From Blastocystis sp. Blastoise (taxonomy: Eukaryota > Protista > Bigyra: Opalinata), in assembly GCA_039096225.1 (NCBI GenBank), contig JBBPEB010000002.1:620001-684000 (forward strand): DNA of 64,000 nt. The letters run 5' to 3'. This document shows positions 1-36,678 of the stretch, in pieces. The translations under genes were made by a program, and so were the position numbers. Numbering within the stretch: the stretch's first letter is position 1; each line of letters opens with the position of its first letter. Under the pieces are notes generated by a model that made no database searches, had not been told where the DNA came from, and saw only the letters and a program-made list of their open reading frames with translations.

Positions 1-689
1 CATATTGTTAAATCATCACTACCTTGTTTTAACATAAAGAATTGATGTGGATCATTCATTAATTCTTCATCTGTAAGAATTTCATTTAGATTCGATGGCA
101 TAATCTTTAATTTATCTGGTAAGAATCCAGGATCACGTTTTAAGATTTGACTATTAATAAAGAAATGAGATACTTGACTTAATATAGATTGATTGGTAAC
201 ATCTGTATGACTTTGAAGACATATAATAGCATTCTGTTTATAATGACGACCTTTAGATAATATAGATACAATCAATTGTTTGGTTTGTCTAGATAATGGA
301 TAGATATCATCCAATACAATAAAATTATGTTCTGGTAATTTATATGTATTGACTAATTCATCAACAGTCTTAATCTTTTTAAATTTATCATCTACAGAAT
401 CATACCATTTATAATCAATTCCAGCATGTTCACAAATATCTTGAAAGGATGTATAACATTCATTCTTATTGGATGCATCAGGACAAATTACTGTGACTTG
501 TTTATATTTATTTTTAAGATCCATAGAACATAAGAGATTCACAGTTAAGAAAGATTTACCTGAGAATGTTCTTGCAATAATCAATATAAATTTTGATTCA
601 TATGTTTTATGATGGGATTTTCCATATTTAAATTCTAAGACTCCACATCCTTTACGTGTTTCTTTTAATGGATTTATTTTATTCACCAT
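1..689 (-). CDS. A32/FtsK-HerA family DNA packaging ATPase (3' end outside the window)
   Basis: Manual translation from ATG at 689: MVNKINPLKETRKGCGVL...ILIIARTFSGKS (Walker A)...FIVLDD (Walker B)...LSKGRHY (Arg finger)...IICLQS (sensor Gln). Open for 229 codons to the window edge; absent from the supplied ORF track. Confidence 0.93.
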   Translation of the reverse strand, partial: MVNKINPLKETRKGCGVLEFKYGKSHHKTYESKFILIIARTFSGKSFLTVNLLCSMDLKNKYKQVTVICPDASNKNECYTSFQDICEHAGIDYKWYDSVDDKFKKIKTVDELVNTYKLPEHNFIVLDDIYPLSRQTKQLIVSILSKGRHYKQNAIICLQSHTDVTNQSILSQVSHFFINSQILKRDPGFLPDKLKIMPSNLNEILTDEELMNDPHQFFMLKQGSDDLTI

Positions 690-757
690 TTTATATGATT
701 TTAATCAACAAAACAAAAAATAATTAATGATAAGTTAAAGATAAATAAATGATTTTA

Positions 758-1423
758 TTAAGATGCAGTAAAGTATATATAAAGATTTGTATTTGATAAA
801 TCAATTGGATTATTTAATTGATCATATACTTCCCATTGGATATCTGTATATTTACCATCAATACATGGAATAGATAAATCACTTAAAGCAAATGTATTAT
901 CAAATCCTTGTTTAGCATATAAAGGAATAGAAATCAAATCATTATCTTTATTAATAATATCACAATACACACGTAACATATAGATCTTATACCATGAAAT
1001 ATTATTAGATATATATTCATCACTGTAAGTAATTGGTGTATTAAAGTATTCATCATCTAATCCTAAATAATAAAAGAATTCTTTATTACTAAGACTTCTT
1101 CTGAATCCACTATATGTACCAAATGTTTTTGTTTCTTTATCATAATAGAATGCACTCGTTTGTCCAGATACAGATATTGTCATATCTTTACCAAGTTCAA
1201 TTAATTTCTCAAAGAATTCTTCCAATGAATAGTTACCAGCTGGAAATGTATGTGCTGTTGCATTATTTTCAGTTATTCTGAAAGATGGAATATTAATGAT
1301 ATCACTTGTATTCACTAATGTATTGATATGAGTAATATTTTTACCTACTAAATCCAAAGTATAATTGAATTGTTCATGACAGATTTGACTTGTAATTTTA
1401 CTTAGATGAGATATTGATGTCAT
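758..1423 (-). CDS. Minor capsid protein (penton, single jelly roll)
   Basis: FPAGNYSLEEF, LRVYCDII, SIPL and C-terminal IQWEVYDQLNNPIDLSN match Polinton/PLV penton motifs; lies between ATPase and MCP. Confidence 0.8.
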   Translation of the reverse strand: MTSISHLSKITSQICHEQFNYTLDLVGKNITHINTLVNTSDIINIPSFRITENNATAHTFPAGNYSLEEFFEKLIELGKDMTISVSGQTSAFYYDKETKTFGTYSGFRRSLSNKEFFYYLGLDDEYFNTPITYSDEYISNNISWYKIYMLRVYCDIINKDNDLISIPLYAKQGFDNTFALSDLSIPCIDGKYTDIQWEVYDQLNNPIDLSNTNLYIYFTAS

Positions 1424-1513
1424 TTTTATTAAATAAATTAATTATGAAATTATAAACAAAACAATATTTATTAAATTGTATAAATTGATAAAAGAAAATA
1501 TTATATAATTAAA

Positions 1514-2737
1514 TTAATTGGTTGCACCATCTCTAACAAATTTAACAAATATAAAATGAGCATATAAAGTATAAGTACCACTAGTAATATTTGCACCATT
1601 ATATTCAGTTAATAAGGAGATATTAACTTCACAACCACTACGAGTATTGACATCAACAACACTTGAAATAGGGAATATATAAATAGGTTGTTCATACCAC
1701 TTTTCACCATTTAAAGGAGATTGAGGATGACTATTACATCTCCAAGTATTATAAAGCATAGCATTAGGAATAATTTGTGATGGATTCGTTGTTTTATATG
1801 TAGTAGGGAAATCCGTCTTTGGTAAGATATTTTGACCACCAATTTGGAATTGACACATCTTCAATAATTCAGTCTTAATAGGAATCATACTCTTCTCTTG
1901 AGTTGTAAAATATAACATACAGTAATCAGGTACGAAAACAACACTTCTATTGGATAAGAATTGTTGTGGAGTTGGTTTACCTGCTGTTGTGAATGTTTCT
2001 GAATAAACAGGTGTAGTAAATGCAGATATCTGACAATTATTAGGAATACATTTAATCAAAGCACGTGGATCATTACCAAAATTAATATCATAAATTTGTT
2101 GAAGATGAATATAAACACGATCAAAAGTTAATGCAGTGATTTTAGTCGTACCTGTAAATAGATTCTTTAAATAATTTGTAACGAATTGCATCTTCAAAGA
2201 TTTTACTTTAATAGCACAATCAAATGTACCAAGACCAGTAATAAGAGATAAAGGAATAATAACTTGAGCTTTTTCTTTCATTTCCATTCCAGCAATACTG
2301 CTTGAGGTTGTATTATATAAGCATTCTGTCATACTATACATAGATTTATCAATTTCATCTTTACTTAATTCTTTAATAGTAACAAATTTTCTTGCTTTAC
2401 TGGATTCAATAGAAGATTCAGAATAATTAATAAGAATATCTTGACCCGTAGGAGATACAAACGTAAGATCTGTAGTAATTTTATCAATAATACTATAGAT
2501 ATTAGAATGTTGTACAACAGAACTAGTTGTTGCTGCATTTGTTGTAATATTGAAATTCAGTTCTAAGAATGAATTACTGAAATCAATATAAGGGCTATCC
2601 ACTGAATTATGTAAGAATTCAAATGGATAAGGTTGATTTAATAAATCTTGACTTGTAGAAACTAGAATAGGAATTTGTACAGGTTTAATAGTTTGATTTG
2701 CCTTTGAAGGTAAGAATTGTCTTGGGAATCCTTCCAT
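1514..2737 (-). CDS. Major capsid protein paralog 1 (double jelly roll)
   Basis: 407 aa, beta-rich; N-terminal YIDFSNSFLELNFNI and IIPLSLI motifs typical of Polinton/PLV MCPs; gene context. Confidence 0.78.
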   Translation of the reverse strand: MEGFPRQFLPSKANQTIKPVQIPILVSTSQDLLNQPYPFEFLHNSVDSPYIDFSNSFLELNFNITTNAATTSSVVQHSNIYSIIDKITTDLTFVSPTGQDILINYSESSIESSKARKFVTIKELSKDEIDKSMYSMTECLYNTTSSSIAGMEMKEKAQVIIPLSLITGLGTFDCAIKVKSLKMQFVTNYLKNLFTGTTKITALTFDRVYIHLQQIYDINFGNDPRALIKCIPNNCQISAFTTPVYSETFTTAGKPTPQQFLSNRSVVFVPDYCMLYFTTQEKSMIPIKTELLKMCQFQIGGQNILPKTDFPTTYKTTNPSQIIPNAMLYNTWRCNSHPQSPLNGEKWYEQPIYIFPISSVVDVNTRSGCEVNISLLTEYNGANITSGTYTLYAHFIFVKFVRDGATN

Positions 2738-2912
2738 GTTAGTAATTATTGTTTATGTATTTTTTAACAAAATAAAAATAACATAATAATAATATTTTAT
2801 AATTATTTATTAATTTAAATTTTTTATAACAAAACAAATGATTGTATTATAGAATAGAATAGAATTAATTAAACAAGTTAACGTTAAGAATAGTAAGTAA
2901 GAAATATTAAAT

Positions 2913-4385
2913 TTAAATATCACGTACACTACGTACAGCAATCATATGTAAGGTATAAGGATGCTTCTCATTTAGTTCAGTATTAATATGTTTATAAATA
3001 CCAGCATGAGATGCTACACTATAAGAAGCACCAGTATCAGGTGTCCATATTTTAGTAGTTTCATTATATGTACATGTATATCCATCAGGAACAGTAGATG
3101 AATCAGCATGACCATACTCAATATCATGGACATCTAGATTACAATCAAAATTCATTTCTATACCACTATCTGATTGGATATTCATTAATGCTTTAGTTGG
3201 AATAATATAAATAGGATGTTTAATCCATTCATCATATTTAAGAATAGTTTCAGGATTTGAATTATCAGCCCATAAACAATATAGTTTTTTATTAGGACAA
3301 GATAAACTAGCAGTTTCTTCATTATTGAAGACATGACCTTTAGTAGTAAGATTATGATAATACATTTGAGTAGGGAATTCAGTTTGAGGGAACATTTGAA
3401 CATCACCAATCAAACAACTTTGATATTTAGGCCATACAGATGGACTAGCTACATTACTAATAGTTGTTGAACTATAACCATTTGTAAACCAGTATAATAT
3501 ATATTCAGGTATAAATGGTAAAGCTCTATTGATATTGAATTGATCACTAGTTATTCTTGTATTTTGATAATCGACTTGAATACATGCAGGTATAGTTTTA
3601 TATAATTCATTCGTTTGGAATTGAATATCTTTATAAGTCATTAAATTCATAGTAGCTGATTCCAATTCAAATGTCTTAAACCATTTTTCATCAGTTAGAT
3701 GTAACCATTGTGTTGATAATTTAGCACCACCATTCTTGAAATAAATACTCATATTATTATCAATTAAAGATTCAATTGTACTCGTTCTAAATAGCATATT
3801 GAAATGTTTAGTTAATATTAATGAATCTCCATCAACACCTAAACCACTAATGAGATATAAAGGAATAGCAATATGAATAGATTCATTTGGATGTGCACGT
3901 ATATAACGAATAGAATTCAATTCATAAGTATCTGCAGATAAATCTTCACCATACATAGATTTTTCTAAATCATTCTTACTGATATCTTTTAATAAAATCA
4001 TCTTACGACCACGTGAAGCATGTGTACAGTTTTCTTCATATTTCAAAGCACGATCAGATCCATCAGGTAATGTATAAGCCATTTCAACATCAGTGGAATC
4101 AATAATAGAATAAATATTTGCTTTTTGAACTAATTGATCCAAGAAATATTGACATAATTGATCATAAGTGAAACTAACAGAAGTACCTGTTTCATCTAAA
4201 TAAACAGAAACTGGTCCTTTTTTATCTGTAACAGTTGCTTTGACAGTAAGATCCAAATAGGATTGATTGAAATTGATATAAGTATTATCCACATTAGTCC
4301 AATGATATTGAAAGATATAAGGACTTGATAGAATATCAGTATCACTTTGAATAGGAATATTATCTTTAATTCTTAAGATTCTCAT
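2913..4385 (-). CDS. Major capsid protein paralog 2 (double jelly roll)
   Basis: 490 aa, colinear with 1514..2737: YINFNQSYLDL/YIDFSNSFLEL, NIYSIID in both, KSMY in both, IPLYLISGLG/IPLSLITGLG, FIPEY/FVPDY, PQTEFPT/PKTDFPT, PIYIIP/PIYIFP. Confidence 0.75.
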   Translation of the reverse strand: MRILRIKDNIPIQSDTDILSSPYIFQYHWTNVDNTYINFNQSYLDLTVKATVTDKKGPVSVYLDETGTSVSFTYDQLCQYFLDQLVQKANIYSIIDSTDVEMAYTLPDGSDRALKYEENCTHASRGRKMILLKDISKNDLEKSMYGEDLSADTYELNSIRYIRAHPNESIHIAIPLYLISGLGVDGDSLILTKHFNMLFRTSTIESLIDNNMSIYFKNGGAKLSTQWLHLTDEKWFKTFELESATMNLMTYKDIQFQTNELYKTIPACIQVDYQNTRITSDQFNINRALPFIPEYILYWFTNGYSSTTISNVASPSVWPKYQSCLIGDVQMFPQTEFPTQMYYHNLTTKGHVFNNEETASLSCPNKKLYCLWADNSNPETILKYDEWIKHPIYIIPTKALMNIQSDSGIEMNFDCNLDVHDIEYGHADSSTVPDGYTCTYNETTKIWTPDTGASYSVASHAGIYKHINTELNEKHPYTLHMIAVRSVRDI

Positions 4386-4478
4386 ATTTCTTTTTATTTT
4401 AAATAAATATTAATAAATAAATAAAATTAAATAATTTTTATAAATTAATATAAATTATTATTTTATAAATTAGAAAAT

Positions 4479-6983: not shown

Positions 6984-7406
6984 ATGGAGCCTAAATCTGT
7001 ATCTGAATCCTTACATTCTTTATCAAGTACAAGTTCAACAAGTTCAGATAGTTCAACAACAACCACATTATCCGAAGAAGAAATAGAAAAGAAAAATACT
7101 TTATTAGAATTTATTATAAAAGCTATAAAATGTTTATTTGAGAAATCAACTGAATTCTTTCAATTAATTGTTAAAAATATAGATATTCATTGTAATTGTT
7201 GTAATCCACAAACAAAGAAAGTCTATTATAAGACAATGAAAATACAACAAACTATTATAGAAGAAGAAGTCAAACATATATCTGAAGTCTTGAATGAATT
7301 AGAAGAAATTGATTCGAATCAAAATGAATCAATACAAGAATTAGCTGTTCAATTAATGAAATTAAATATAAGTGTTGATTCTATTGTTCAATCTCTTCAT
7401 TTATAA
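6984..7406 (+). CDS. Hypothetical viral protein (Ser/Thr-rich N-terminus, predicted coiled coil)
   Basis: 140 aa ORF with AAAATG start context and downstream TTGTTTTGTT motif like neighbouring genes. Confidence 0.7.
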   Translation: MEPKSVSESLHSLSSTSSTSSDSSTTTTLSEEEIEKKNTLLEFIIKAIKCLFEKSTEFFQLIVKNIDIHCNCCNPQTKKVYYKTMKIQQTIIEEEVKHISEVLNELEEIDSNQNESIQELAVQLMKLNISVDSIVQSLHL

Positions 7407-7473: not shown

Positions 7474-9318
7474 ATGCAATCAACAGGTTATTCAGATAAA
7501 GATTGTGAAGAATTCTTTACAAATTGTATAGATCAATTATTACATTGGAAGAAAATACAATTATCAACAAGTATAAATTGGAAGAAATGGATAAAGACAA
7601 TATGTAAGAAATTTCGTAATGAAGAACGAATTCAAATAGATGATATGGAAGAACCATTCTTTTGTGTAGAAGTGTTAACAGATCCATTTCAATTTCAAAA
7701 TGTTATGCAACATACACAAACAGAAGCTCCTGGACAACAAGGTGGATTATCCAATACTACTGTAGCTAATTATATGCAAATGATTACTTATATAATGAAG
7801 AATATATCTATTTGTACAGATGATGAAGATATCATTAATTATAAAGCATTTACTCCACAAAATATAAAGAAATGGGAACATTTATGGGGTTCTTTACAAA
7901 TTGATGCTACTTATTCAAGACATTATGAAATCACTCAGAAAATTATTAATTGTGAAGCTGATTGGGGAGAAATCATTAATATCACCAAAAAGAATTATTT
8001 AGAAAATCCTAATGATTTATATTATGTGAATAGTTATTTATTAGTTTTAACTTATGATACATTATGTGCTCGTAATGATTATAATGATTGTGTAATCTAT
8101 ACTCGTGGTCAACAAATTCCTTTATCGTTAAGAAGAACAACCAATTATATTGATTTAAATACTTTGACTATTCATGTGAATGATACAAAGAATCGATTTG
8201 AAATTGGTAAGAATGAATATCCTACTTATCAATATTTATCAGAAGAATATTTGAATGTCTTAGCTAGATCCTTACGTTTATTTCCAAGACATTATTTATT
8301 TGTTACTGAGAATGGTGGTAAAGTACGTGATTTGAAATTTGGTGATGAATATATAAAACCTCATTTAGGATGGATTTATAAAACACAACAGAATAATTCT
8401 TTAATTAATGGTTGTGATATTATAAGACATTTATTTGCTCAATATTATTATAGATTATCAAGAGAAGCACAATTCCAACATAATGATTCAGAACACGAAT
8501 CTAAAGGTGTAGAACTCTTTGAAAACTCTATTATGAAGATGTTACATAGTCAATCAACACATATGGAAAATTATATATCTCCTTATTTATCTTCTCATTC
8601 AACTAAATTGCAAGATTTAGATAATAAAACAAGAACATTTCATATTGATATGAATAATATTACTTATACAAGAGAAATTAATCAATTGAATAAATTATTA
8701 TTTTTATGTAAACGATTTAATGATCGTATAGAACAATATGATGAAGATTATGAAGATGTATTTGGTAAAGAGAATTTCAATATGAAATCAGAATCCATAT
8801 TAGGTAGTCTAGAACAATATTCATCAGATAATGATACTATAATGATTACATTAAGATATTATAAAGATCTATTAAAGCATAAGTATCCAGATAAAAACGA
8901 TTTAGAAAATGAATTACCTGTAGGATGTTCATTAGAATCTGAAGAAGTTCCAGAGAATTCTAGAGATCGTTATAATCGTTTTATACGTAATAAACAATTA
9001 TTACCTGATCATTTACATAATAATACAACAGATTCAGAATTAACGAATACTCAAGCATCTCTTATGCAACAAAATACTCAAGATGAAAACTCTACACCTA
9101 TAGTTATGAATAATTCAGATACTTATGCATTACGTAGTCTTTCTACTATGCCTCCTTTAGAACCTATTCATCGTGGTCATGGTTTATTGAAAAACATAAA
9201 GGTAATGCATTCTTTAAAGTCAAAGTCCCTAAAAAACATTTTCATGGAATTCAATTTAAATTTTATTAATTTTTTAAACAAAACAACTTTTTATAATAAA
9301 AAAAATATTATTATTTAA
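7474..9318 (+). CDS. Tyrosine recombinase 1 (PLV/virophage type) with long extensions
   Basis: Catalytic series ARNDY (R), NYI, DTKN (K), YLF, DIIRH (R), MLHS (H), ENY (Y); same motif order as 18048..18983. Confidence 0.72.
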   Translation: MQSTGYSDKDCEEFFTNCIDQLLHWKKIQLSTSINWKKWIKTICKKFRNEERIQIDDMEEPFFCVEVLTDPFQFQNVMQHTQTEAPGQQGGLSNTTVANYMQMITYIMKNISICTDDEDIINYKAFTPQNIKKWEHLWGSLQIDATYSRHYEITQKIINCEADWGEIINITKKNYLENPNDLYYVNSYLLVLTYDTLCARNDYNDCVIYTRGQQIPLSLRRTTNYIDLNTLTIHVNDTKNRFEIGKNEYPTYQYLSEEYLNVLARSLRLFPRHYLFVTENGGKVRDLKFGDEYIKPHLGWIYKTQQNNSLINGCDIIRHLFAQYYYRLSREAQFQHNDSEHESKGVELFENSIMKMLHSQSTHMENYISPYLSSHSTKLQDLDNKTRTFHIDMNNITYTREINQLNKLLFLCKRFNDRIEQYDEDYEDVFGKENFNMKSESILGSLEQYSSDNDTIMITLRYYKDLLKHKYPDKNDLENELPVGCSLESEEVPENSRDRYNRFIRNKQLLPDHLHNNTTDSELTNTQASLMQQNTQDENSTPIVMNNSDTYALRSLSTMPPLEPIHRGHGLLKNIKVMHSLKSKSLKNIFMEFNLNFINFLNKTTFYNKKNIII

Positions 9319-12317
9319 TTTGGTATAGCATATAAAGTATTATCTATTAAAATTCGTTTTGTTGATGACGTATTATGATATTGATCTTCACTATAAACAA
9401 TTTCTTCTTTTTTAGATAAACAATTGGATAAACAGAATAAATCTGTATCCACACATTCATTATAAGTATTATCAATCATTAAACCACAAATACCAATAGC
9501 ATTCCCCCCCTTATAGAAATTTGAAGTATGTTTTCTATGAATATTCACAATATCTATAGAATTAAATGTATCTTTACTACTTAAACAACCAAATAAAGCA
9601 TTTGTAAATTTATCTAAATCCTTCTTAATCGTAAATTGATTATTATTATTCACTTTCTTATAACTATTAAAAATATCTTCAATAGTAACTACATTCAAAT
9701 AATAAGGATCTATAGTAATATGGTTATCAACAAAAGATTTCAAATCATATCCTTCTGTACTACGATCAAAGAATCGTTTCTTACATTCACTTATATGATA
9801 TTCATTATCTAATTCATGCATATCTAATTGCATACTAGAATAGAAATAATTACTTACTAGATAACTAAAGATAATTGAACGATTCTGATAGAATTTATCG
9901 GATAGAGTATAATCCATTTCATAATGATTTGGTTTCAATCTCTTTTCTACTGTCTGTTTACGTTTAGGTAAATTATGATCTACATAATCTTCATATAAAT
10001 TAGCATTACCAGGAGGGAAATAACGACAACATGATGGTAAGAAACAGACTCTTCTTTCAATAGGACCAGCATTCACAGCAGTAGGTTGGATATTACTTGT
10101 CATAAATAAAGTACCCGTGAAATGAACTTTTGTAAATATATTACTGAATAATTTACGGGCACTAGCACCTTCTTTCTTTTCTGCTATTTCTTTAAAGACT
10201 TTAGAAGAGAATGGATTAAATGTTTTCTTTCTACCAGTAACATCTTCTTCTATTAATTCATTCATATAATACATTGTTTTATTAGACATATCTACAATCT
10301 TAGGAGCTATAGATGTTTCTTCTAAATTATCTGGATTTACTATAATACATTGATTACTACCTACAATACGAGATATTAAATCAGTTGTTATTGTTTTACC
10401 ATTACTACCTGTACTACCATATAATATATAAGAAACTGTTTTCTGAGTATTGACATAGAAAGCAGTGGTTAAGATACGTAACATAATACTTTCATATTTC
10501 TTATCGAATTCACAATATCTTGCAATATGTTGTTCAAATAATTGGATAATATCTTTCTGTTCATTATTAATATTCCAACTTACATTAAATTCAGTATCAA
10601 TTAATAAATCTTCAAACACCATATCTTCTTTATGATATGGTTGGATATAATATTGTCTAGGATCTTCTTCTGTAGATTCTTTTGGATATAAATAACCAAG
10701 TTGTGTATAGATAACACGTTCTTTATGAACCATATAAGTATCTAAATATTCTTTATAAGATTTACCATAAGTCTTCAAATAACGATTCAACCATTCTTTA
10801 TAATGATATTCATTAGTAACAGAAGCAGACATTATTTTATCAACAATTTTTTGATGCTGTTCATTCTCTTTGGAATATAATCTTGATAATTTGAATTTCT
10901 CTACAATCGATTTCATAAATGTAGTTATTTTGGTTTCAAAGAAATTAATATCATAATTATTCTTACAACGTCTTAAGATATTATATTCATCAAATGTATA
11001 TAAGATAAAATTATCTTTATCTAATATAATAGATACAATTTCATTAAATTCTAATAATTGAAATAACATAACTAATGTTTGTGAATCTACAAGATTAAAG
11101 GATTGAATACATTCTAAAATAGACATAAATATGAAATCATTATCATCATCTTTATTAAATAATTTATTATCCATTAATATCTTCAAAATATAATTATTCG
11201 ATAAATGAGTAGGATCAACTTGTATATGATTCCATGTAGATTCAATTACATCATCACTTCGATCATGACCATAACGTAATGAATAATTTTTAAATAATTC
11301 TAATCCTCTTGTTGTATTACAAATCTGTTTTGCTGCACAACATAATTTATACCAAGTATTATGGGATTCAAAATAATTCATATCTTCAATAGAACCAATC
11401 AATAATAAATATCGTTCTAATAAAGCTTCTTTAGATGCTGTAGTATCCAATATAGTATCTGTAGAAATCAACATAGGAATATCTTTAATATCTTGTATAG
11501 AACATAATATAGTACGTGAACAATTATTTAATCTTGCATAATAACGTTTATAACGTGAATATTGTTTTAATTTATAAAAAGTAATAGGATTAATAATATC
11601 ACTTATAATATCATCTTCATTCTTATAATTCAATAATGTTTTGAAATAATAATGTTCATCGATTTCATCATCTATTTTCTTCCATGTTTTATTGGTATAT
11701 TCTTCATATAATTTATAAGTAGATGGAGAATTATCTTTACTACAACCAAGAAACATACAACCATTATTCTTTCTTGGTTTACCAATAACATTATAATCAA
11801 TGAATTCTTTTATATCTAAATTATTCATTTTACATAAATCAACCAATTTTGTATTCAGAATCATACTATTATATAAGAAAAATAAATAATCACCATTTAC
11901 AAACCAATTTGTATATATATGAATTCCCCATGAATAATGTATTTCATTATGAACTGTCTTCTTATTCACTTCTTTCTTTGTATACAGAAGCGAAATAAAT
12001 TCTTGATTATAATAATGAATACAATGATTACACATTTCTTCTATAAATTCATGAATAAAAGAATCTGTTAGAAAAGAAAAATCATTTGATATTTGGTGAT
12101 AATCTAAATCAAACCATAATCTTCTATAATTAGTTGATGTATTACAAGGAGTACAATCAATATAATGTAATAATTCTTTTGGATTTTGATAATTAGTAAA
12201 TAGACTTTTATAAAATGGTAATGGATTTGGTATAATAATTTCACTATGATTATCTTTTGAATTATCATGATTAAAGGAACCAAAAGTATAAACAAAATGA
12301 ATTTGTGAATTTTCCAT
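9315..12317 (-). CDS. AEP primase - PriCT - superfamily 3 (D5-like) helicase fusion
   Basis: LWFDLD (DxD), WGIHIY, FIDYNV primase motifs; HNTWYKLCCAAK...FKNYS PriCT-2-like; GSTGSNGKT Walker A, YMNE Walker B, FMTSN motif C, IERR Arg finger. Confidence 0.9.
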   Translation of the reverse strand: MENSQIHFVYTFGSFNHDNSKDNHSEIIIPNPLPFYKSLFTNYQNPKELLHYIDCTPCNTSTNYRRLWFDLDYHQISNDFSFLTDSFIHEFIEEMCNHCIHYYNQEFISLLYTKKEVNKKTVHNEIHYSWGIHIYTNWFVNGDYLFFLYNSMILNTKLVDLCKMNNLDIKEFIDYNVIGKPRKNNGCMFLGCSKDNSPSTYKLYEEYTNKTWKKIDDEIDEHYYFKTLLNYKNEDDIISDIINPITFYKLKQYSRYKRYYARLNNCSRTILCSIQDIKDIPMLISTDTILDTTASKEALLERYLLLIGSIEDMNYFESHNTWYKLCCAAKQICNTTRGLELFKNYSLRYGHDRSDDVIESTWNHIQVDPTHLSNNYILKILMDNKLFNKDDDNDFIFMSILECIQSFNLVDSQTLVMLFQLLEFNEIVSIILDKDNFILYTFDEYNILRRCKNNYDINFFETKITTFMKSIVEKFKLSRLYSKENEQHQKIVDKIMSASVTNEYHYKEWLNRYLKTYGKSYKEYLDTYMVHKERVIYTQLGYLYPKESTEEDPRQYYIQPYHKEDMVFEDLLIDTEFNVSWNINNEQKDIIQLFEQHIARYCEFDKKYESIMLRILTTAFYVNTQKTVSYILYGSTGSNGKTITTDLISRIVGSNQCIIVNPDNLEETSIAPKIVDMSNKTMYYMNELIEEDVTGRKKTFNPFSSKVFKEIAEKKEGASARKLFSNIFTKVHFTGTLFMTSNIQPTAVNAGPIERRVCFLPSCCRYFPPGNANLYEDYVDHNLPKRKQTVEKRLKPNHYEMDYTLSDKFYQNRSIIFSYLVSNYFYSSMQLDMHELDNEYHISECKKRFFDRSTEGYDLKSFVDNHITIDPYYLNVVTIEDIFNSYKKVNNNNQFTIKKDLDKFTNALFGCLSSKDTFNSIDIVNIHRKHTSNFYKGGNAIGICGLMIDNTYNECVDTDLFCLSNCLSKKEEIVYSEDQYHNTSSTKRILIDNTLYAIPN

Positions 12318-12403: not shown

Positions 12404-12451
12404 GAAGCTTCTAGAACATTCTAGAACATTCAAGAACATTCTAGAACATTC
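12404..12451. promoter_or_regulatory. Heat-shock-element-like array (10 alternating nGAAn units) upstream of primase-helicase
   Basis: GAAgcTTCtaGAAcaTTCtaGAAcaTTCaaGAAcaTTCtaGAAcaTTC. Confidence 0.7.
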
Positions 12452-12485: not shown

Positions 12486-12533
12486 TTCTAGAACCTTCTA
12501 GAACCTTCTAGAACCTTCTAGAACCTTCTAGAA
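12486..12533. promoter_or_regulatory. Second heat-shock-element-like array (10 units) upstream of primase-helicase
   Basis: TTCtaGAAcc repeated five times, last spacer ca. Confidence 0.7.
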
Positions 12534-12643: not shown

Positions 12644-13267
12644 TTAAATTTCAATTGGTTCTTGACTATTAATATATGTACATGAATGAGGCCATCCATT
12701 CTTATCATATAAAATACCATCCCAGAAATACATTTGTTTTGAAGGATCTCTTTTAATCTTGTTAATACTCTTAGCATGAACAACTTCATAAGAATAAACT
12801 TTACCTTTTTCATCATAAAGAAATCCATCTTCCATATGGAATTTCATAATATCAAAATCATCATCTTTAGAATTCGAATGTTCTTTAGAATCTTCAGAAC
12901 ATAAAATAGTAGTTCTATCACTTTCTAAAAGATCTTCAGTATTGATAATATCTTGAATATCTTGTTCTTCATTAAGTTGTTGAGTATAAATATCAGCAGC
13001 GAATTCTTCATAATCTTCAAGACCTTTAATAACCGCGTTTATACGTTTTAAAGCTGATCTATAGTTTTCGACTTCGAAAGAAGCAAGACGTTCTTTAGAT
13101 TTTGCAATACCCAATAGATTCTTTTCTCTATTCAATTGAGACTGATGTAAATCAATATCACGAAGAACATTCTTATGAACTTCAACAGCCTTCTTAGAAT
13201 TCTTAAGAAGTTCCATACGAACAGTTTGAAGACATTTACGGGAATCAGCAGAAAGATTAAATTGCAT
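12644..13267 (-). CDS. Hypothetical viral protein with N-terminal coiled coil
   Basis: ORF track starts at TTG 13312; first ATG is 13267 (MQFNLSAD). Charged helical-looking N-half. Confidence 0.7.
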   Translation of the reverse strand: MQFNLSADSRKCLQTVRMELLKNSKKAVEVHKNVLRDIDLHQSQLNREKNLLGIAKSKERLASFEVENYRSALKRINAVIKGLEDYEEFAADIYTQQLNEEQDIQDIINTEDLLESDRTTILCSEDSKEHSNSKDDDFDIMKFHMEDGFLYDEKGKVYSYEVVHAKSINKIKRDPSKQMYFWDGILYDKNGWPHSCTYINSQEPIEI

Positions 13268-13378: not shown

Positions 13379-13396
13379 GAATGTTCTAGAAGGTTC
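13379..13396. promoter_or_regulatory. HSE-like array (4 units) in a divergent promoter that also has three inverted CCAAT boxes
   Basis: GAAtgTTCtaGAAggTTC; ATTGG near 13402, 13475 and 13545. Confidence 0.55.
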
Positions 13397-13665: not shown

Positions 13666-14193
13666 ATGGAAATTTCTGATAGTCTTTCTGCCAGTTTATC
13701 CCCTTTCGGTCAAGCCATGATATCCCCCTTGTTGAATCCATTTGAAAATAGTGTTTCTGCAAATCCTATGGCTTTACCCAATGATAATGATTTCTGTTTT
13801 AATTCGCGTGACGAAATCATGTTTGAAGATCCACCTCAAGATATTCATCCAATCAATGATGTTTACGTATCTAAAAATCCAGATAGATATCATTCGGTTA
13901 ACAATCAACCAATACAATTTCAAGATCAAGTAAATACAAATCCTAATAAGCAAGCATTATTATTTACAAATGAGGAGTTAACAAATATATCCAGTCAATT
14001 CGAATCTTTATTTCAAACTATTGAAACAGCTGATAATATATTAAATGGTATTTATTGTACTGTTGATCATTTAAAAACAAAGATTGAAAGTCAGAAACAA
14101 GATTTGAAACAGATTCATGATGATTCTAAAGAAATTGTTTCATTATTATCCGAATATTCTATTCCTTCTATGTCTGAAATATTTGATCATTAA
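13666..14193 (+). CDS. Hypothetical viral protein (acidic/Pro-rich N-terminus, C-terminal coiled coil)
   Basis: 175 aa ORF; heptad-like C-terminal region; TTGTTTTGTT about 25 nt after the stop. Confidence 0.7.
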   Translation: MEISDSLSASLSPFGQAMISPLLNPFENSVSANPMALPNDNDFCFNSRDEIMFEDPPQDIHPINDVYVSKNPDRYHSVNNQPIQFQDQVNTNPNKQALLFTNEELTNISSQFESLFQTIETADNILNGIYCTVDHLKTKIESQKQDLKQIHDDSKEIVSLLSEYSIPSMSEIFDH

Positions 14194-14284
14194 TTATTTT
14201 TATTTAATTAATTATTTTGTTTTGTTTATTTTTTTTTTAATTAATTACACAAAGTTTAAATGGAGAATAGAATAGTTTCAAATA

Positions 14285-14391
14285 GAATTCTTGAATGGTC
14301 TAATGGATCTATTAAAGAAATATGTAACCACAGTATCATGGTTCGATTCCGTTAAAATGTTTCCATTAGATTATTCAAGTGTTCTTTTTTT
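14285..14391 (+). ncRNA. Candidate Pol III small RNA, VA-RNA/vault-RNA-like architecture
   Basis: A-box TGGTCTAATGG 14296-14306, B-box GGTTCGATTCC 14340-14350, T7 at 14385-14391; 14290-14307 pairs with 14362-14379 (18 bp, two G-U). Confidence 0.65.
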
Positions 14392-14437
14392 CTAGAACCT
14401 TCTCGAACCTTCTAGAACCTTCTCGAACATTCTGGAA
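14390..14437. promoter_or_regulatory. HSE-like array (10 units) upstream of the SSB-like gene
   Basis: TTCtaGAAccTTCtcGAAccTTCtaGAAccTTCtcGAAcaTTCtgGAA. Confidence 0.7.
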
Positions 14438-14514
14438 AATTGATTCATTTGAAAAGAATATCGTAATATATTAGTATTAAAATACTTATATTTTTACTAA
14501 ATACTTAACTAAAA

Positions 14515-15108
14515 ATGTCTTCAACTGAATTTAAGAAACCTACTATTCTTGATACTTCTAACTTTAATTTACAATGGGATGACACCAAAGAAAATGCTGT
14601 TCTTTTAAATAATAATCATCGTGTATGTATTTCTACTGATGCTACACCATGTTTATTTGGTTATATTGTTACACGTGATAAATGGACTTTATTAACAATT
14701 GAAGATGATAATCAAGTATTCTTAACTGCTTATAAAGAACTTTATCGTAAATTATGTGAATTATGTCCTGATGGTGATATTGTTAATTTTGTACGTATGG
14801 ATAATGGTAAATATAAGATTACAATTAAAGTACCTATTAATGCATCGAAGAATGTTACTATTGATATCACTGATAAAAGAGATAAGAAGATTAATATCGG
14901 TAAAGATCCTAAGTTAACTTACGAAGAAATACGTGAAAAGTATATTCCACCAAATACGTTATGTAAAGTATTATTTACAATACATGGTATTCATCGTTAT
15001 AATAACAAGTATTATATTGGTTTATATGCTCGTTCTATTAAAGTCATCGATAAATCTACGAAGAATACTAATAGTAATGATACTATTATTGATTTAACTA
15101 ATTTATAA
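14515..15108 (+). CDS. Probable OB-fold single-stranded DNA-binding protein (viral, DUF2738/gp2.5-like)
   Basis: C-terminal pattern IPPNTLCKVLFTIHGIHRYNNKYYIGLYARSIKVI resembles viral SSB OB-fold strands; shares the upstream array with the primase-helicase. Confidence 0.55.
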   Translation: MSSTEFKKPTILDTSNFNLQWDDTKENAVLLNNNHRVCISTDATPCLFGYIVTRDKWTLLTIEDDNQVFLTAYKELYRKLCELCPDGDIVNFVRMDNGKYKITIKVPINASKNVTIDITDKRDKKINIGKDPKLTYEEIREKYIPPNTLCKVLFTIHGIHRYNNKYYIGLYARSIKVIDKSTKNTNSNDTIIDLTNL

Positions 15109-15183
15109 ATTTTTAATGTTAAATTTATTTTTTATTAATATATTTGTTTTGTTTATAAATAATTTTATAATTGAAATAAAAAA

Positions 15184-16911
15184 ATGCAAAGTTGTATATT
15201 AGGAATGCCAAGTCCTGGTACTTTTGGTATGAATTTAATTTCAACTGGAAAAGAATATAGGCGATATAATACACAACCATTACATAAAATGGATCAATAT
15301 AATCCAATATTTCATGAAATAGGTCCAAATTCATCTATGCCTGTGTCTACTTTAGAAAGTAAAGAAATACATGATGGTAAAGAAGATGATTATGTAGATC
15401 GTTCTAAAACATTTGGTAAAGATGCTGTTCCACAAGGAAATGGTGCATTAATTCGTGCTAGAGCAGCAGGTAAAGGAATAATGAAAGCAGCTGGTCCAGA
15501 AGAAGATAAAATAGATGGTGAAGATCGTCAATATAAAGTATTAAATCCATGTAAACCAAGACGTAAATCTGGTAGAGGAATTATTCCAAATAAATCAGAA
15601 ATCAATAAATTAGAGAATAATCAAGGTTCTGGTATTGGTGATGCAATTAAAAATAAAGTAAAAGATATGTATCAACGAAATGTATTAGATATAAGAGATG
15701 CTATTGTAGATAAAAAAGCTAATAGAAAAGCTCGTGATGCATTAGCTATTTTAGCTCAATATGTTGGTGACGGTCATCATGATCTTGATGATGAATTCAA
15801 AAGATTCTATGAACATAAAATTAAACGTGGTGGAAAGATTCCTATATCAGTTGCTTCAGCAATTATGAATGCAATTAAAAATAAGAAAATGATTAAGAAT
15901 CCAAAATTAAGAAGAATGTTAAGACCTTCAATTATACCAAAATATATAGATTTAGATTCAGCTCAAAGTGGTGATGGTATATTAAGAGTAAAAAGAGGTG
16001 GTGGATTCTGGAGTGGAGTTATGAACTATGCACCAGCTCTATTAGGTGTAGTTGATAAAGGTATGGATTCTTTTGCTAAAGGTAGAAAAGCTTATTATGA
16101 TACACATTTGGCACAACAATCAAGTGAATTAAATGATATGGAATTTGAAATGGAAAAATTAAAACGTCAACAAGCATTAAATGAAATGAAAAAGCAAATA
16201 GGTAATGGTATAGTAATGGGAACAATTAATGATGGTTACGATACAGTTGAACGACAATCAGAATTATTAGATCAAGAAGTGCAACCATTAAGAGATTTGC
16301 ACAGTATGAAACAACAACTTAGAAAGAATCTTCCTGTTCGTCAACCACCTCCTCCAGCAGCACCCATTCAACCACAACCAGAAATTGAACCTGAATTGAA
16401 TGTTGATACATTTGATATACCTCAAAATGATACACCAAGACATCCACAAACTCAACAACCTCCTCAACCTTATAAACCCATGTCTCGTGATGAACAAAGT
16501 TATTATTATAAGATTTATGGTTTCCCTCAAAATGATAAAGAGAAAGTCGATAGAAAATGGAAAGAAGATGAAAGGGATAAACGAATAGCTGCAAGAAGAG
16601 CTAAACGTAGAGGTTATGGTGGTCGAGTTAAATTAAGTAAAGCAGAATTCTTAGAACGAATGAGAAGAGGAAAAGAAGCTAAAAAGAAAAGAGGTGGTGA
16701 TTTGAATCCATTAGTATCATTTTATACAGATTTTATAATACCTGCAGGAGTGGCACGAAAAAAACGTAAAATACAAGAGGCTGATTTAAAACAATTACAA
16801 ATTATAAAACAGAAAAGAGATAATAATGAAACATTAAATACAGGTGACGAATTGTTCTGGAAAAAAAAGAAGTATATGTTATCAAAAAACTCAGGGGAGG
16901 GGATCTGGTAA
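15184..16911 (+). CDS. Basic core protein precursor with repeated adenain-type G-x-G / GG cleavage motifs
   Basis: 575 aa, Lys/Arg-rich; QGNGAL, AGKGIM, SGRGII, QGSGIG, RGGKI, SGDGIL, RGGGFW, IGNGIV, YGGRV, RGGDL, SGEGIW; adjacent to the protease. Confidence 0.7.
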   Translation: MQSCILGMPSPGTFGMNLISTGKEYRRYNTQPLHKMDQYNPIFHEIGPNSSMPVSTLESKEIHDGKEDDYVDRSKTFGKDAVPQGNGALIRARAAGKGIMKAAGPEEDKIDGEDRQYKVLNPCKPRRKSGRGIIPNKSEINKLENNQGSGIGDAIKNKVKDMYQRNVLDIRDAIVDKKANRKARDALAILAQYVGDGHHDLDDEFKRFYEHKIKRGGKIPISVASAIMNAIKNKKMIKNPKLRRMLRPSIIPKYIDLDSAQSGDGILRVKRGGGFWSGVMNYAPALLGVVDKGMDSFAKGRKAYYDTHLAQQSSELNDMEFEMEKLKRQQALNEMKKQIGNGIVMGTINDGYDTVERQSELLDQEVQPLRDLHSMKQQLRKNLPVRQPPPPAAPIQPQPEIEPELNVDTFDIPQNDTPRHPQTQQPPQPYKPMSRDEQSYYYKIYGFPQNDKEKVDRKWKEDERDKRIAARRAKRRGYGGRVKLSKAEFLERMRRGKEAKKKRGGDLNPLVSFYTDFIIPAGVARKKRKIQEADLKQLQIIKQKRDNNETLNTGDELFWKKKKYMLSKNSGEGIW

Positions 16912-17003
16912 AGAGTAAAGATGAAAAACTTATTCAAAATTCAATGAATTGCGATAATCCTATTATATCTGATAAAACTCGTCATGTTACTCCTAGATCC
17001 CCT
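16884..17003 (+). other. Candidate -1 programmed ribosomal frameshift signal linking core precursor to protease
   Basis: In-frame A_AAA_AAC (16884-16890), 7-nt spacer, AGGGGATCTGG (16898-16908) pairing with CTAGATCCCCT (16993-17003); the -1 frame is the protease frame and is open from 16848. Confidence 0.7.
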
Positions 17004-17477
17004 GATAATTTTAAACAAACTCTATCTCAATATTGTAATATACCCAATTCTTTAATATCTCAATTATATAATTATGCTTATTTAAATAAACCTACTTCTT
17101 CTGTTGCTTGTGATCGTGCTGAAAATGTTATGAAACAATTAAATAAAACGAATTCTCAATCTTATAATTATTATAATAGTTATGATGATTTTGAACAAAA
17201 TATAGATCAAGATCAAACTAAATTTAATATGATCTTTCATGAAAGTCCTAGTGATCCTTATAATGGTCATTTTGAAGCTGTTATTTATAATGGTAATAAA
17301 AACATAGAACACTATTCATCATTAGGAAATGAACCTACTTTTTCAAAATCATTTATTCAAAATCATAATATTCAATATAATCCTATTCAACACCAAAAAA
17401 CTACAAGTAATGCAAATGGTTGCTTTTATTATTCTTTACTTTATTTACTTTCTAATGGAAATCTTATGCCTTGTTAA
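16944..17477 (+). CDS. Adenain/Ulp1-like (clan CE) maturation cysteine protease; frame open from 16848
   Basis: NGHFEAV (His), EHYSSLG (position of the usual FDSxG motif), IQHQ (oxyanion Gln), NGCFYYSLLYL (Cys). Confidence 0.78.
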   Translation: MNCDNPIISDKTRHVTPRSPDNFKQTLSQYCNIPNSLISQLYNYAYLNKPTSSVACDRAENVMKQLNKTNSQSYNYYNSYDDFEQNIDQDQTKFNMIFHESPSDPYNGHFEAVIYNGNKNIEHYSSLGNEPTFSKSFIQNHNIQYNPIQHQKTTSNANGCFYYSLLYLLSNGNLMPC

Positions 17478-17481
17478 AACA

Positions 17482-17504
17482 TTCTAGAACATTCTAGAAC
17501 ATTC
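17482..17504. promoter_or_regulatory. HSE-like array (5 units) upstream of ORF 17600
   Basis: TTCtaGAAcaTTCtaGAAcaTTC. Confidence 0.55.
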
Positions 17505-17599
17505 ATTTTGAACTGGCTCTATTTGTAGAATCTTTAATTTATTATATTAGTGTTTTATATAATTAATTTGTTTTGTTTAATCATTGGTTAATTTAAATA

Positions 17600-17974
17600 A
17601 TGAACAAGAAATATCTTAGTTATTCTTATTTTTGTCGTGTGATGAAGAATCTAAAAGAAGAAGGAATTAAATCCAAAAAGAATGAAATAGCAAATCTATT
17701 AGAACAATTTTTAAATAATAATAACAACAAGAATCTTAGTGATTTGCAATTGAGTTACTGTAGAAATATGTTACTTTATATAGATGATCCTGTGATTCAT
17801 CAACGTCTTGAAATGCTATTGGATAAACAATATATGAAGAATGAGAATCAATATCAAGAGGATAAGAATCTTATTCAACCCAATAATATGTTTATGCCAA
17901 CTATGAAAAGTAATCAACAACAAAATCAATACCAAAATAATAATAATACTCTATCTTTCTTACCTTTTAATTAA
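17600..17974 (+). CDS. Hypothetical viral protein
   Basis: 124 aa ORF with Asn/Gln-rich tail, preceded by an HSE-like array. Confidence 0.6.
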   Translation: MNKKYLSYSYFCRVMKNLKEEGIKSKKNEIANLLEQFLNNNNNKNLSDLQLSYCRNMLLYIDDPVIHQRLEMLLDKQYMKNENQYQEDKNLIQPNNMFMPTMKSNQQQNQYQNNNNTLSFLPFN

Positions 17975-18047
17975 TTTTTATATCCTTTTATTACTAGTTG
18001 TTTAGTTATATTCAAATTTAAAGCAAAACAAGCATGAAAACACAAAA

Positions 18048-18983
18048 TTATTCAATTAATTTTTTAAATAAATTATTATTTTCTAAAGATACATAAGAAT
18101 TAATATGTGTATAATCATTATGACATAAAGCAGAAGCAGAATTTTCTATATCTTGGAATGTATTGGTTGTAGTTGTAGCATATAATTTTCTTAATGCATT
18201 AATGGTTAATTTTGGATGGATTTGTTTTAAATGCTTATTCACAAACCAATCAAATGCTTTAGTAGTAAATCCAGTTCGTACAGAAGATTCAAATATAAAT
18301 TTACGATTTGGATTTCTTTTTAAGAGTAATTCTAGATCTTCAATCAATTCTTTTGGTGCATCTAATTGAATTGTAGAGTATTTACCAGCAGTTTTATAAT
18401 CATTTAATAGAATAGAACCAGTATGTTTCTCTTTATCATAAACAATATAATTCTTATGAATAGCTGGATCAATAGTATCTTCTGGTGATAGAATGAATAA
18501 TTGAGCATAATCAGCACGAGCAGGAGGAATATAGGAGTAAAAATCTAATATTAATCGTAATGGATTATAATTTTCTAATTTATCGTGATATTCATGTAAA
18601 TATGGAGTCGTAATACCATCTTTAATAAGATCTTGAATCAAAGTACGTTTCTTATTATCCAGATATTTTTCATACATTGAATTGATAATCACATAAAATT
18701 CACACCATTTATTCAAAATACCTTCTTTATTTAATGAAGAAACATTACGTATAATAAATAATATCAATTCACATAACGATTTCATGGGACTAATTTTGAT
18801 TTTACGTTCATTTACCATATAATCCATGAATGAATAAGGATTCTTTAAGAATTCTGAGAACTTTTTAAATGGTAATGGGAAAATATATAAATTGAAATAA
18901 TTGGTTAAACGTTTTTTCCAAATATCAGAATAATTTGAATTTTGTATAACCAAAAGATACTTGTCATAATTTGTATTTTTCAT
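18048..18983 (-). CDS. Tyrosine recombinase 2 (PLV/virophage type)
   Basis: PPARADY (R), NYIV, NDYKTAGKY (K), FIF, INALRK (R), ALCHN (H), INSY (Y). First ATG at 18983; the track uses TTG 18995. Confidence 0.85.
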   Translation of the reverse strand: MKNTNYDKYLLVIQNSNYSDIWKKRLTNYFNLYIFPLPFKKFSEFLKNPYSFMDYMVNERKIKISPMKSLCELILFIIRNVSSLNKEGILNKWCEFYVIINSMYEKYLDNKKRTLIQDLIKDGITTPYLHEYHDKLENYNPLRLILDFYSYIPPARADYAQLFILSPEDTIDPAIHKNYIVYDKEKHTGSILLNDYKTAGKYSTIQLDAPKELIEDLELLLKRNPNRKFIFESSVRTGFTTKAFDWFVNKHLKQIHPKLTINALRKLYATTTTNTFQDIENSASALCHNDYTHINSYVSLENNNLFKKLIE

Positions 18984-19071
18984 TGATTTTCTCAAGTAGA
19001 ATCTCTAAAACTTCTATTTTCAAAAGAATAATATATAAGAAAATCAAAATAAAATATCTAAAATTCTCGTG

Positions 19072-19119
19072 TTCTCGAATGTTCTAGAAGTTTCTAGAAT
19101 GTTCTAGAATGTTCTCGAA
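19072..19119. promoter_or_regulatory. HSE-like array (10 units) upstream of tyrosine recombinase 2
   Basis: TTCtcGAAtgTTCtaGAAgtTTCtaGAAtgTTCtaGAAtgTTCtcGAA. Confidence 0.7.
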
Positions 19120-19175
19120 AATTTATATTTTTCCATATCAGTCGCTCATGTTTCAAAAAGTCTCTCGTTATAATC

Positions 19176-19708
19176 GTGGTGGTGGGTACATCTTTTTACA
19201 AGACCACACCACCACCAGCTTTTCTTTCACCCACTATAAATACATACCTTGATCACTTTACTCTTTTTATATATTTTTTTTATGATTATCATGACTTTTT
19301 ATATTATTTATTGATCACTATACATACATTTTTATTTTTATATATTCCCGTGATTATTTTTATTATTTCTTTTTAGATAGAACCATCCATTTCATCTTTT
19401 CTCTATATAAAGGGAGGGTCGGGGTGTGTGTTTATTTAGCACATTCTGTGCTTCTTTTCGTATTTCTTTCTGTATTCCCGTGATTATTTTACTCACTTTA
19501 CCAACGATGGAGTCATTTTCCATGAATATTCCCTGTAAAGGGGAGGGTTGGACTGTGTATTTTATTTCTTTTATGATCACTATGAGTTTCTCCTTGATCA
19601 CTTTACGTTTCACGTTGGAATCGGAACACAAATAAATTAAAAATAAATAAACATGGGAAAAAATAAATACACACACACACTACCCTACACTCCCATGGTT
19701 ATTTTACT
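19176..19708. repeat. Repeat-rich putative terminal region of the PLV
   Basis: GTGGTGGTG/CACCACCAC hairpin (19176-19215); four TGATCACT; TATTCCCGTGATTATTTT and GGGGAGGGT each twice at ~129-bp spacing; (AC)n near 19670. Confidence 0.5.

Positions 19709-36585: not shown

Positions 36586-36678
<93 letters not shown>

Follow-up and report, generated by a model that had tools for sequence, protein, structure and literature searches.

The stretch of Blastocystis sp. Blastoise DNA analysed here (the window: 64,000 nucleotides of contig JBBPEB010000002.1) opens with at least 19.1 kb of an endogenous element that is almost certainly a recently mobile provirus of a Polinton-like virus (PLV). It possesses the hallmarks of this group: a double-jelly-roll major capsid protein (MCP), an A32/FtsK-like packaging ATPase and a replication module that combines an archaeo-eukaryotic primase with a superfamily 3 helicase (AEP-SF3). 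With somewhat better than even confidence, we propose that this intact, recently multiplied provirus, the host of which is likely Blastocystis, keeps the genes for its primase-helicase and likely recombinase, together with three or four more non-capsid genes, behind arrays of heat-shock elements (HSEs) and would be induced through the heat-shock factor (HSF) of the host.

The element comprises 15 viral open reading frames (ORFs) between positions 3 and 18983, each of which is stop-free in a single frame under the standard code and needs no intron; together the ORFs cover 89% of positions 1-19100. As the window starts inside the ATPase gene, only the part of the element to the right of that point is visible. 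Its base composition equals that of the flanks (GC content 0.22-0.33; GC at third codon positions, GC3, 0.07-0.23). The right end can be placed only roughly, at ~19.1-19.9 kb, and likely lies within the following region:

19130..19870, no strand: non-coding terminal region that contains two hairpins (19176-19215 and 19722-19841) as well as short direct repeats

The DNA folding z-scores of the two hairpins are -4.2 and -8.3, respectively. A preliminary description of this DNA, made from its letters, had called the viral ORFs open and intron-less, the neighbouring Tc1, RepHel, MULE and pogo genes decayed, and the element an intact, recent PLV of a divergent lineage. All of this agrees with our results: there are no internal stops in the 15 ORFs, all four neighbours carry stops or frameshifts, and recency follows from 20 further near-identical loci. 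The HSE arrays, a common 3' motif and a second recombinase-like ORF did not figure in that description.

In the 90% clusters into which the window proteins fall, every named member carries the label Blastocystis sp. Blastoise, which makes this lineage the likely host. At least 20 loci besides that of the window share a common gene order from ORF221 (221 aa) and MCP1 to the recombinase; 19 of them have MCP2 and one is partial. This number was counted from sorted accessions and is a lower bound, with at most four accessions shown per sequence. The primase is identical between copies at 991-999 of 1000 residues (11 full-length sequences of 14 compared), and the recombinase at 307-310 of 311 (9/9). 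MCP1 retains 382-399 of 405-407 residues (8/8) and MCP2 432-484 of 490; the differences in MCP1 are loop blocks that assort between copies, and the enzymes are nearly invariant. This pattern fits repeated recent, presumably independent insertions from a recombining virus population. More distant families (P0077, P0079 and P0080; 48-51%) also bear the Blastocystis sp. Blastoise label. Beyond these, 82 of the 87 MCP1 matches come from ENA/Logan assemblies or are unlabelled, the full-length ones at 55-63%. Relatives at 40-65% identity reside on metagenome contigs of ~23.7 and ~27.4 kb: in one clade the longest contigs with MCP1, MCP2, protease and primase all measure 23,710-23,956 nt, and in the other those with MCP1, MCP2 and primase measure 26,864-27,522 nt. 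The coinciding sizes suggest unit lengths, which would leave 4-8 kb of the copy in the window out of view. Broad-sense PLVs span 15-40 kb and frequently end in terminal inverted repeats. A search of sequencing runs matched one run, with a share of 0.19, and no RNA run was among the matches listed.

Six perfect alternating GAA/TTC runs with a 5-nt period, every one intergenic, are found within positions 1-19750:

12404..12451, no strand: HSE array of 10 units, 87 nt upstream of the AEP-SF3 gene
12486..12533, no strand: HSE array of 10 units, 169 nt upstream of the AEP-SF3 gene
13379..13396, no strand: HSE array of 4 units, between the divergent ORF207 (112 nt) and ORF175 (270 nt)
14390..14437, no strand: HSE array of 10 units, 78 nt upstream of the gene resembling a single-stranded DNA-binding protein (SSB), touching the T-run of a hairpin
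17482..17504, no strand: HSE array of 5 units, 96 nt upstream of ORF124
19072..19119, no strand: HSE array of 10 units, 89 nt upstream of the recombinase gene

The remaining 44,250 nt of the window contain no GAA/TTC run of three or more units, and 200 shuffles gave a mean of 0.005 runs of at least four units. Measured from the start codon, the nearest array is 87 nt away for AEP-SF3, 112 nt for ORF207, 78 nt for the SSB-like gene, 96 nt for ORF124 and 89 nt for the recombinase. Within 300 nt upstream, the longest run has 4-10 units at 6 of 16 ORFs and 1-2 units at the remaining 10; the capsid, ATPase, core and protease genes all belong to this second group. A canonical HSE is defined as three or more alternating nGAAn/nTTCn units (PMC12801592), a definition that the six arrays of 4-10 units fit. 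Induction through HSEs has been established for ONSEN, Helitron1_CE and flatworm long terminal repeat (LTR) elements (PMC12801592). We thus consider it more probable than not that the arrays are read by the host HSF, which would likely turn on under stress those genes that perfect HSE arrays precede.

The capsid and packaging genes, which lack such arrays, form a block at the left of the element, followed by a small ORF:

3..689, minus strand: A32/FtsK-like packaging ATPase, incomplete at the window edge (PHROG 2666, E 2.7e-10)
758..1423, minus strand: ORF221, 221 aa, likely penton (minor capsid protein), beside the MCP gene, with Atlas features of 0.97-0.98
1514..2737, minus strand: MCP1, double jelly roll by AlphaFold2 model and fold search, 407 aa
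2913..4385, minus strand: MCP2, MCP1 paralogue by homology (relatives P0095-P0098), 490 aa
4479..6914, plus strand: ORF811, 811 aa, beta-rich, inferred to be a likely second penton or spike with insertions
6984..7406, plus strand: 140 aa, coiled-coil-like C terminus, no significant family

The ATPase has Walker A at residue 39, Walker B at 124 and further motifs at 146 and 156, which we take to be the GRH and Gln motifs. Neither MCP has a match in Pfam or PHROG. The AlphaFold2 model of MCP1, built from 86 sequences, has a mean predicted local distance difference test (pLDDT) score of 81.5 and a predicted template modelling (TM) score of 0.81. Structural similarity search using Foldseek gave the Sputnik MCP as the top PDB match (E 1.9e-12, TM 0.50), whereas the clearly best structural match is an uncharacterised protein of MELD virus sp. 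(A0A8S5L5M3), with a TM-score of 0.69 and an E-value of 2.6e-17 at 14% identity. In VIA, the model is most similar to PBCV-1 (Z 18.7, root-mean-square deviation 5.7 over 326 aligned residues), followed by faustovirus (18.5) and Sputnik (17.5); hexon scores 9.8. The top matches are exclusively double-jelly-roll capsid proteins, and the modelled MCP1 is a double jelly roll. MCP2, the other ORF put down earlier for a double-jelly-roll test, is assigned by homology alone, with 28% identity to MCP1 over 418 columns (E 2e-39).

A profile search with both MCPs against 1.84 billion representatives returned 13 proteins, namely both MCP groups, fragments, P0103 and two artefacts, with no third Blastocystis-labelled MCP paralogue among them; the artefacts, P0105 and P0106, arise from repeats and were excluded from the alignments. 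P0103, a Logan protein of 403 aa, is a distant MCP relative (23%, E 2.6e-9) and the sole outlier, which may connect to other lineages. The tree, computed from 27 rows selected out of ~110 sequences, places MCP1 (20 rows, support 100/99) and MCP2 (6 rows, 87/99) in separate clades, each of which mixes Blastocystis-labelled with other sequences; P0103 sits on a long branch with unsure placement. The separate clades of mixed origin imply that the duplication is older than the spread of the lineage, and the remaining 28% identity implies that it took place within the lineage. ORF221 is similar (Atlas 0.97-0.98) to nameless viral clusters, Preplasmiviricota included, and is likely a penton. It shares with ORF811 a repeated PxGxY-type motif, albeit weakly (E 0.016); ORF811 is more variable between copies and may be a second, enlarged penton.

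The replication and integration genes, with three further ORFs among them, occupy the right part of the element:

7474..9318, plus strand: ORF614, 614 aa, inferred to be a likely second tyrosine-recombinase-fold protein, no family match
9315..12317, minus strand: AEP primase-polymerase and SF3 helicase, 1000 aa (PHROG primase E 2.4e-9; TIGR01613 E 1e-8)
12644..13267, minus strand: ORF207, 207 aa, open ORF
13666..14193, plus strand: ORF175, 175 aa, open ORF, C-terminal part coiled-coil-like
14515..15108, plus strand: 197 aa, SSB-like by appearance alone
17600..17974, plus strand: ORF124, 124 aa, open ORF
18048..18983, minus strand: tyrosine recombinase (YR), likely integrase, 311 aa, residues R156, K197, R265, H288 and Y297

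In the primase-helicase, what we take to be the AEP motifs, a PriCT-2-like region and the SF3 Walker A/B, sensor and arginine finger are kept in 7/7 aligned sequences. Its first assignment as AEP-SF3 is thus confirmed by PHROG, TIGR01613 and motifs alike. The SSB-like gene, named alongside it, is an open ORF as stated, for which SSB identity finds no support from Pfam, PHROG or PDB sequences. The YR retains the catalytic residues listed, with weak profile matches (Pfam Phage_integrase E 0.084; PHROG integrase E 0.81), and occupies the terminal position in 18 of the 20 other loci; it is likely a tyrosine recombinase that acts as integrase. ORF614 has R200, K239, R318, H358 and Y367 with the spacing of the recombinase motif set and may adopt a second recombinase fold, although it matches the YR over 20 residues alone (E 0.056). 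A stop in ORF614 made by poly(A) was considered and dropped, as the gene has its own TAA. PDB sequence searches with the protease, SSB-like protein, YR and ORF614 returned chance-level matches, and hits to histone H2B and fibrinogen were discarded as noise. ORF207 is identical at 205-206 of 207 residues in 3/3 other sequences.

No match to a protein-primed DNA polymerase B (pPolB) or an rve integrase was found over 1-19.7 kb in Pfam, PHROGs (16 ORFs) or NCBIfam (11 ORFs). The preliminary description had likewise seen neither; this holds among the ORFs scanned, but its weight was overstated, since PLVs often carry AEP-SF3 and a tyrosine recombinase instead. According to Bellas and Sommaruga (10.64898/2026.06.19.733378), AEP-SF3 frequently takes the place of pPolB in PLVs, and YR that of rve; several MCPs, as in Trimcap, are common. 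In one tandem pair of copies (accessions 8807150-55), six gene models lie between MCP1 and the recombinase of the next copy; two of these are the expected ORF221 and ATPase, which leaves at most four, host genes included. The unseen left arm is probably devoid of pPolB.

Two further features point to the transcription machinery of the host. The motif TGTTTTGTT lies on the sense strand 24-92 nt past a stop in 10/10 occurrences (shuffle mean 2.3, maximum 8) and is present behind 10 of 14 genes with a visible 3' end. This placement, together with a GC3 equal to that of the AT-rich host, argues for host-type transcription. TGTTTTGTT resembles what we take to be the sequence of the Blastocystis downstream gene element. 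In the published test, this element is enriched only in human subtypes (PMC10690189). The motif in the window suggests that the host lineage may have a longer variant, which a test with the human-subtype motif would have missed. As a side observation, 11 further matches to either form of the motif lie in the flanks (window 1-64000), and one copy is found 65 nt past the stop of a Crypton-like gene at 28205-29397.

The second feature is a hairpin next to the SSB-like gene:

14284..14391, plus strand: predicted gene for an RNA polymerase III (Pol III) transcript like virus-associated (VA) RNA, with an A box (14296), a B box (14340), a T7 end and a long terminal stem

It folds at -34.6 kcal/mol (z -6.8), with 0 of 200 shuffles as stable, and a pair of A and B boxes was met in 0 of 300 shuffles. 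VA RNA genes have internal A and B boxes, a terminal stem and an oligo-T terminator, all of which are present at 14284-14391. Rfam and ARAGORN gave no match for the hairpin. The sole Rfam match at E<=1 in positions 1-24000, MIR1314, lies over an HSE array and was rejected at 29.5 bits against a cut-off of 108. By analogy, the hairpin is predicted to be a VA-like Pol III gene; such an RNA had been pointed out beforehand, and as sequence it stands up (fold, boxes and T7 end).

Two genes between the SSB-like gene and ORF124 recall adenoviral maturation:

15184..16911, plus strand: 575 aa, basic, core-protein-like, with 12 GxG/xGG sites and 108 Lys plus Arg
16944..17477, plus strand: clan CE fold like that of the protease adenain, by Atlas and AlphaFold2 model; active site apparently non-canonical

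The protease ORF has an Atlas score of 0.96 to clusters, 13-16% of them with Peptidase_C5. Its AlphaFold2 model (14 sequences in three clusters, pLDDT 65) superimposes onto the MELD virus sp. protease with a TM-score of 0.53 (E 2e-4), and the top 29 rows in VIA are nearly all clan CE or YopJ-like (Z 4.5-6.9; adenain 5.6, African swine fever virus pS273R 6.6). As modelled, 16944-17477 has the clan CE fold. In the canonical clan CE register, an Asp or Glu follows the next strand after the catalytic His, and a Cys-Gly pair starts a helix seven residues past the oxyanion Gln. His109 is in the catalytic place ahead of the central strand 110-115 and is kept in 21/21 relatives, whereas the canonical acid and Cys are not at the expected positions of the model (pLDDT 65) in any of the three sequence clusters. 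The acid position is Ser125 in 19/19 relatives reaching that far. The Cys-Gly position is Asn158-Gly159, at the start of a helix from 157 and seven residues past Gln151; among the 18 relatives keeping that stretch, position 158 is Asn in 17 and His in one. According to the model, Asn158 and Ser125 likely stand in for the catalytic Cys and acid. The same residues in 60%-identical relatives indicate a lineage trait rather than decay. Cys160, two residues beyond Asn158, is also conserved, so that an altered register or active site is possible.

The core-like ORF has 12 GxG/xGG sites here and 11-12 in 5/5 other copies; its 15 G.G/GG sites are moderately above chance (shuffle mean 7.0, maximum 17). 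The earlier proposal of a protease with a cleaved core precursor is therefore upheld as far as the clan CE fold goes. That the core is cleaved is doubtful, because the canonical Cys and acid are apparently replaced.

To the right of the element, genes of Tc1 (from 43932), Helitron, MULE and pogo elements, identified by Pfam, contain stops or frameshifts. The Helitron Rep-Hel gene (52511-57319, plus strand) is nearly intact, with single in-frame stops at 55268-55270 and 57320-57322. The Crypton-like tyrosine recombinase gene (28205-29397, minus strand) occupies two frames, likely with a short GT-AG intron between them; it resembles a gene with one intron rather than a decayed copy, and may be intact. 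Directly beyond the terminal region lies an open ORF of 387 aa (19876-21039, plus strand), Gag-like in look and without a family match, which ends in a C-x2-C-x3-H-x4-C knuckle. The GC-rich hairpin of 120 nt at 19722-19841 precedes it (RNA z -6.1, DNA z -8.3). Together they could represent the viral terminus; alternatively, a retroelement may have inserted next to the virus, and this would be its 5' end. Dispersed non-coding repeats of families D5, D6, D8 and D13-D15 are present at 22106-23620, 27422-27871, 36674-38722 and 40263-42313, 91-96% identical and with an internal period of ~489 nt. Around the Tc1 gene, the pairs 32001-32184/44764-44944 and 31444-31743/43308-43607 match each other (inverted 95-99%, direct 82%) and are likely the terminal repeats of two Tc1 copies. 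Genes for tRNA-Lys(ttt) and tRNA-Asn(gtt) lie on the minus strand at 39105-39177 and 63755-63828.

Altogether, the genes and motifs suggest the following life cycle. The latent provirus would be transcribed in the nucleus by host RNA polymerase II and Pol III. Upon stress, activated HSF would start the recombinase, primase-helicase and SSB-like genes; the tyrosine recombinase would excise the element and later re-integrate it. AEP-SF3 with the SSB-like protein would prime and unwind the DNA, with elongation by itself or together with host polymerases. The capsid genes would be expressed from array-less, AT-rich promoters, the two MCPs and the penton or pentons would form the capsid, possibly with mixed capsomers, and the ATPase would fill it. 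The Pol III hairpin might act as a decoy against host RNA defences, and the protease-fold protein would be inactive or work with an altered chemistry.

Several points weigh against this proposal. The left arm and both junctions of the element lie outside the view, and the profile evidence for the recombinase, SSB and penton identities is weak. Induction, excision and particles are read from genes and motifs alone, and the arrays and the hairpin are known from the DNA of this one copy; DNA of relatives was absent from scans of viral, metagenome and genome contig collections and phage records. The arrays also come close to tandem repeats of a 10-mer. Of 22 units, 16 have TA as inner spacer, and the outer CA/TG and CC/GG spacers represent the same unit read on opposite strands (19/21). 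Slippage or a viral DNA-binding protein could therefore account for them. The second 10-unit array before AEP-SF3 (at 169 nt) and the array at the T-run of the hairpin could be origin elements, and searches for a heat-shock factor in this host gave nothing relevant.

We regard it as unlikely, though deserving serious weight, that the arrays are merely HSE-like and serve a virus-encoded regulator or replication protein, for auto-regulation or as origin iterons. The nearly tandem 10-nt units with little spacer variety and the adjacency of two arrays at 12404-12533 would suit such sites, and the small ORFs (207, 175 and 124 aa) and the second recombinase-fold protein are possible DNA binders. The match to the canonical HSE is however exact over up to 10 units, with variation confined to the free positions; the constant 78-112 nt to five start codons on both strands fits a promoter element better than an origin, and early genes require a host factor for their start. 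It is also rather unlikely that the left arm carries pPolB, with or without rve or a third MCP, which would turn the provirus into a Polinton/MELD-type or Trimcap-like hybrid with an extra primase-helicase. There is room for this in the 4-8 kb that contigs of ~23.7 and ~27.4 kb leave out of view, the Blastocystis MELD virus has PolB and an integrase (PMC8502044), and the best structural match is to MELD virus sp. By contrast, AEP-SF3 and YR normally substitute for pPolB and rve (10.64898/2026.06.19.733378), at most four gene models separate the ATPase from the next locus in the tandem pair (8807150-55), and the 13 profile matches include no third Blastocystis-labelled MCP paralogue.

Spread inside the genome without particles, whether by segmental duplication or by transposition through the recombinase, appears improbable. 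It would agree with a protease apparently lacking the canonical nucleophile, one partial locus and some shortened ORFs; yet 19 of the 20 other loci retain open capsid genes, which vary in their loops while the enzymes do not, the protease residues recur as a lineage trait in 60%-identical metagenomic relatives, and the gene set is found elsewhere on unit-length contigs. It is very improbable that the element is a virophage-like satellite, woken by a co-infecting giant virus and replicating alongside it. The element has no elongating polymerase of its own in view, the Sputnik MCP is the top Foldseek match in PDB and some PLVs act in that way, whereas the HSEs, Pol III boxes and 3' motif suggest nuclear transcription by the host, PBCV-1, faustovirus and Sputnik are within ~1 Z in VIA, and the egovirus preprint reports an absence of gene flux between Blastocystis and those gut giant viruses (10.1101/2024.03.23.586382). 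We therefore retain the stress-inducible PLV provirus as the preferred reading.

Giant-virus-independent reactivation of endogenous Polintons and PLVs is an open question, for which the element offers a candidate trigger: heat or proteotoxic stress sensed via HSF. A culturable gut protist with ~20 intact copies is a cheap test system, and the commonest gut eukaryote gains a viral candidate with a possible influence on its populations in fever or upon a change of host. The capsid lineage was wholly missed by sequence profiles, though its relatives are frequent in public assemblies. More tentatively, and with considerable doubt, the copies may represent a widespread, unrecognised two-capsid virus lineage of Blastocystis, induced by HSF as prophages are by the SOS response, with a VA-like RNA outside adenoviruses and maturation by a protease fold with a non-canonical triad.

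In literature searches, no paper linked HSEs or VA RNA to Polintons, and the portions accessible held no account of this gene set in Blastocystis; no virus passage was found in the accessible part of the Blastocystis genome paper (PMC10690189), and in that of the PMC10120064 supplement Blastocystis is only in the list of screened genomes. MELD virus sp. provides the best structural matches for both MCP1 (TM 0.69, 14% identity) and the protease (TM 0.53), under A0A8S5L5M3 and A0A8S5L5S2; this BFVD entry is not equated here with the Blastocystis MELD virus of Starrett et al. 2021. The latter has PolB and an rve-type integrase, and the virion proteins of Blastocystis-associated MELD viruses are unrecognisable by sequence (PMC8502044); instead of PolB and rve, the element in the window shows AEP-SF3, a likely tyrosine recombinase and two MCPs. 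The Sputnik MCP of virophages tops the Foldseek list (TM 0.50), yet it ties with capsids of nucleocytoplasmic large DNA viruses in VIA, and MELD is closer.

Adenoviruses have a VA RNA with A and B boxes, stem and T-run, the clan CE protease adenain and a basic pVII with Gly-rich sites. The element resembles them in its A/B boxes, terminal stem and T-run, its clan CE fold and its basic protein with Gly-rich sites. However, its RNA measures ~108 nt and has no Rfam match, the catalytic Cys and acid are apparently replaced, and neither an adenoviral polymerase nor a hexon-type MCP is in view (hexon Z 9.8 versus 18.7). ONSEN, Helitron1_CE and Macrostomum LTR elements share canonical HSE promoter arrays with the element (PMC12801592), but they are retro- or rolling-circle transposons with one promoter, whereas five or six candidate promoters occur here in a capsid-encoding DNA virus.

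PLVs with AEP-SF3 and YR, of 15-30 kb and multi-copy in protist genomes, share with the element an MCP, an A32-like ATPase and a primase-helicase, along with its likely penton and likely YR (Bellas et al. 2023, PMC10120064; Bellas and Sommaruga, 10.64898/2026.06.19.733378). The element additionally has a protease-fold gene, a GxG core protein, HSE arrays and a predicted VA-like RNA. Trimcap PLVs have several MCP genes, sometimes two pentons, stramenopile hosts and a predicted heterotrimeric capsomer (10.64898/2026.06.19.733378); they are aquatic viruses with three highly divergent MCPs, whereas two MCPs with 28% identity are in view here. Among 1.84 billion representatives, the MCP relatives of the element comprise its own clade and one outlier at 23%. 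Overall, the architecture is that of a PLV of known type, and the novelty lies in the proposed coupling of its promoters to stress, in the number of copies, in the VA-like RNA and in the unusual protease, more than in a missing polymerase.

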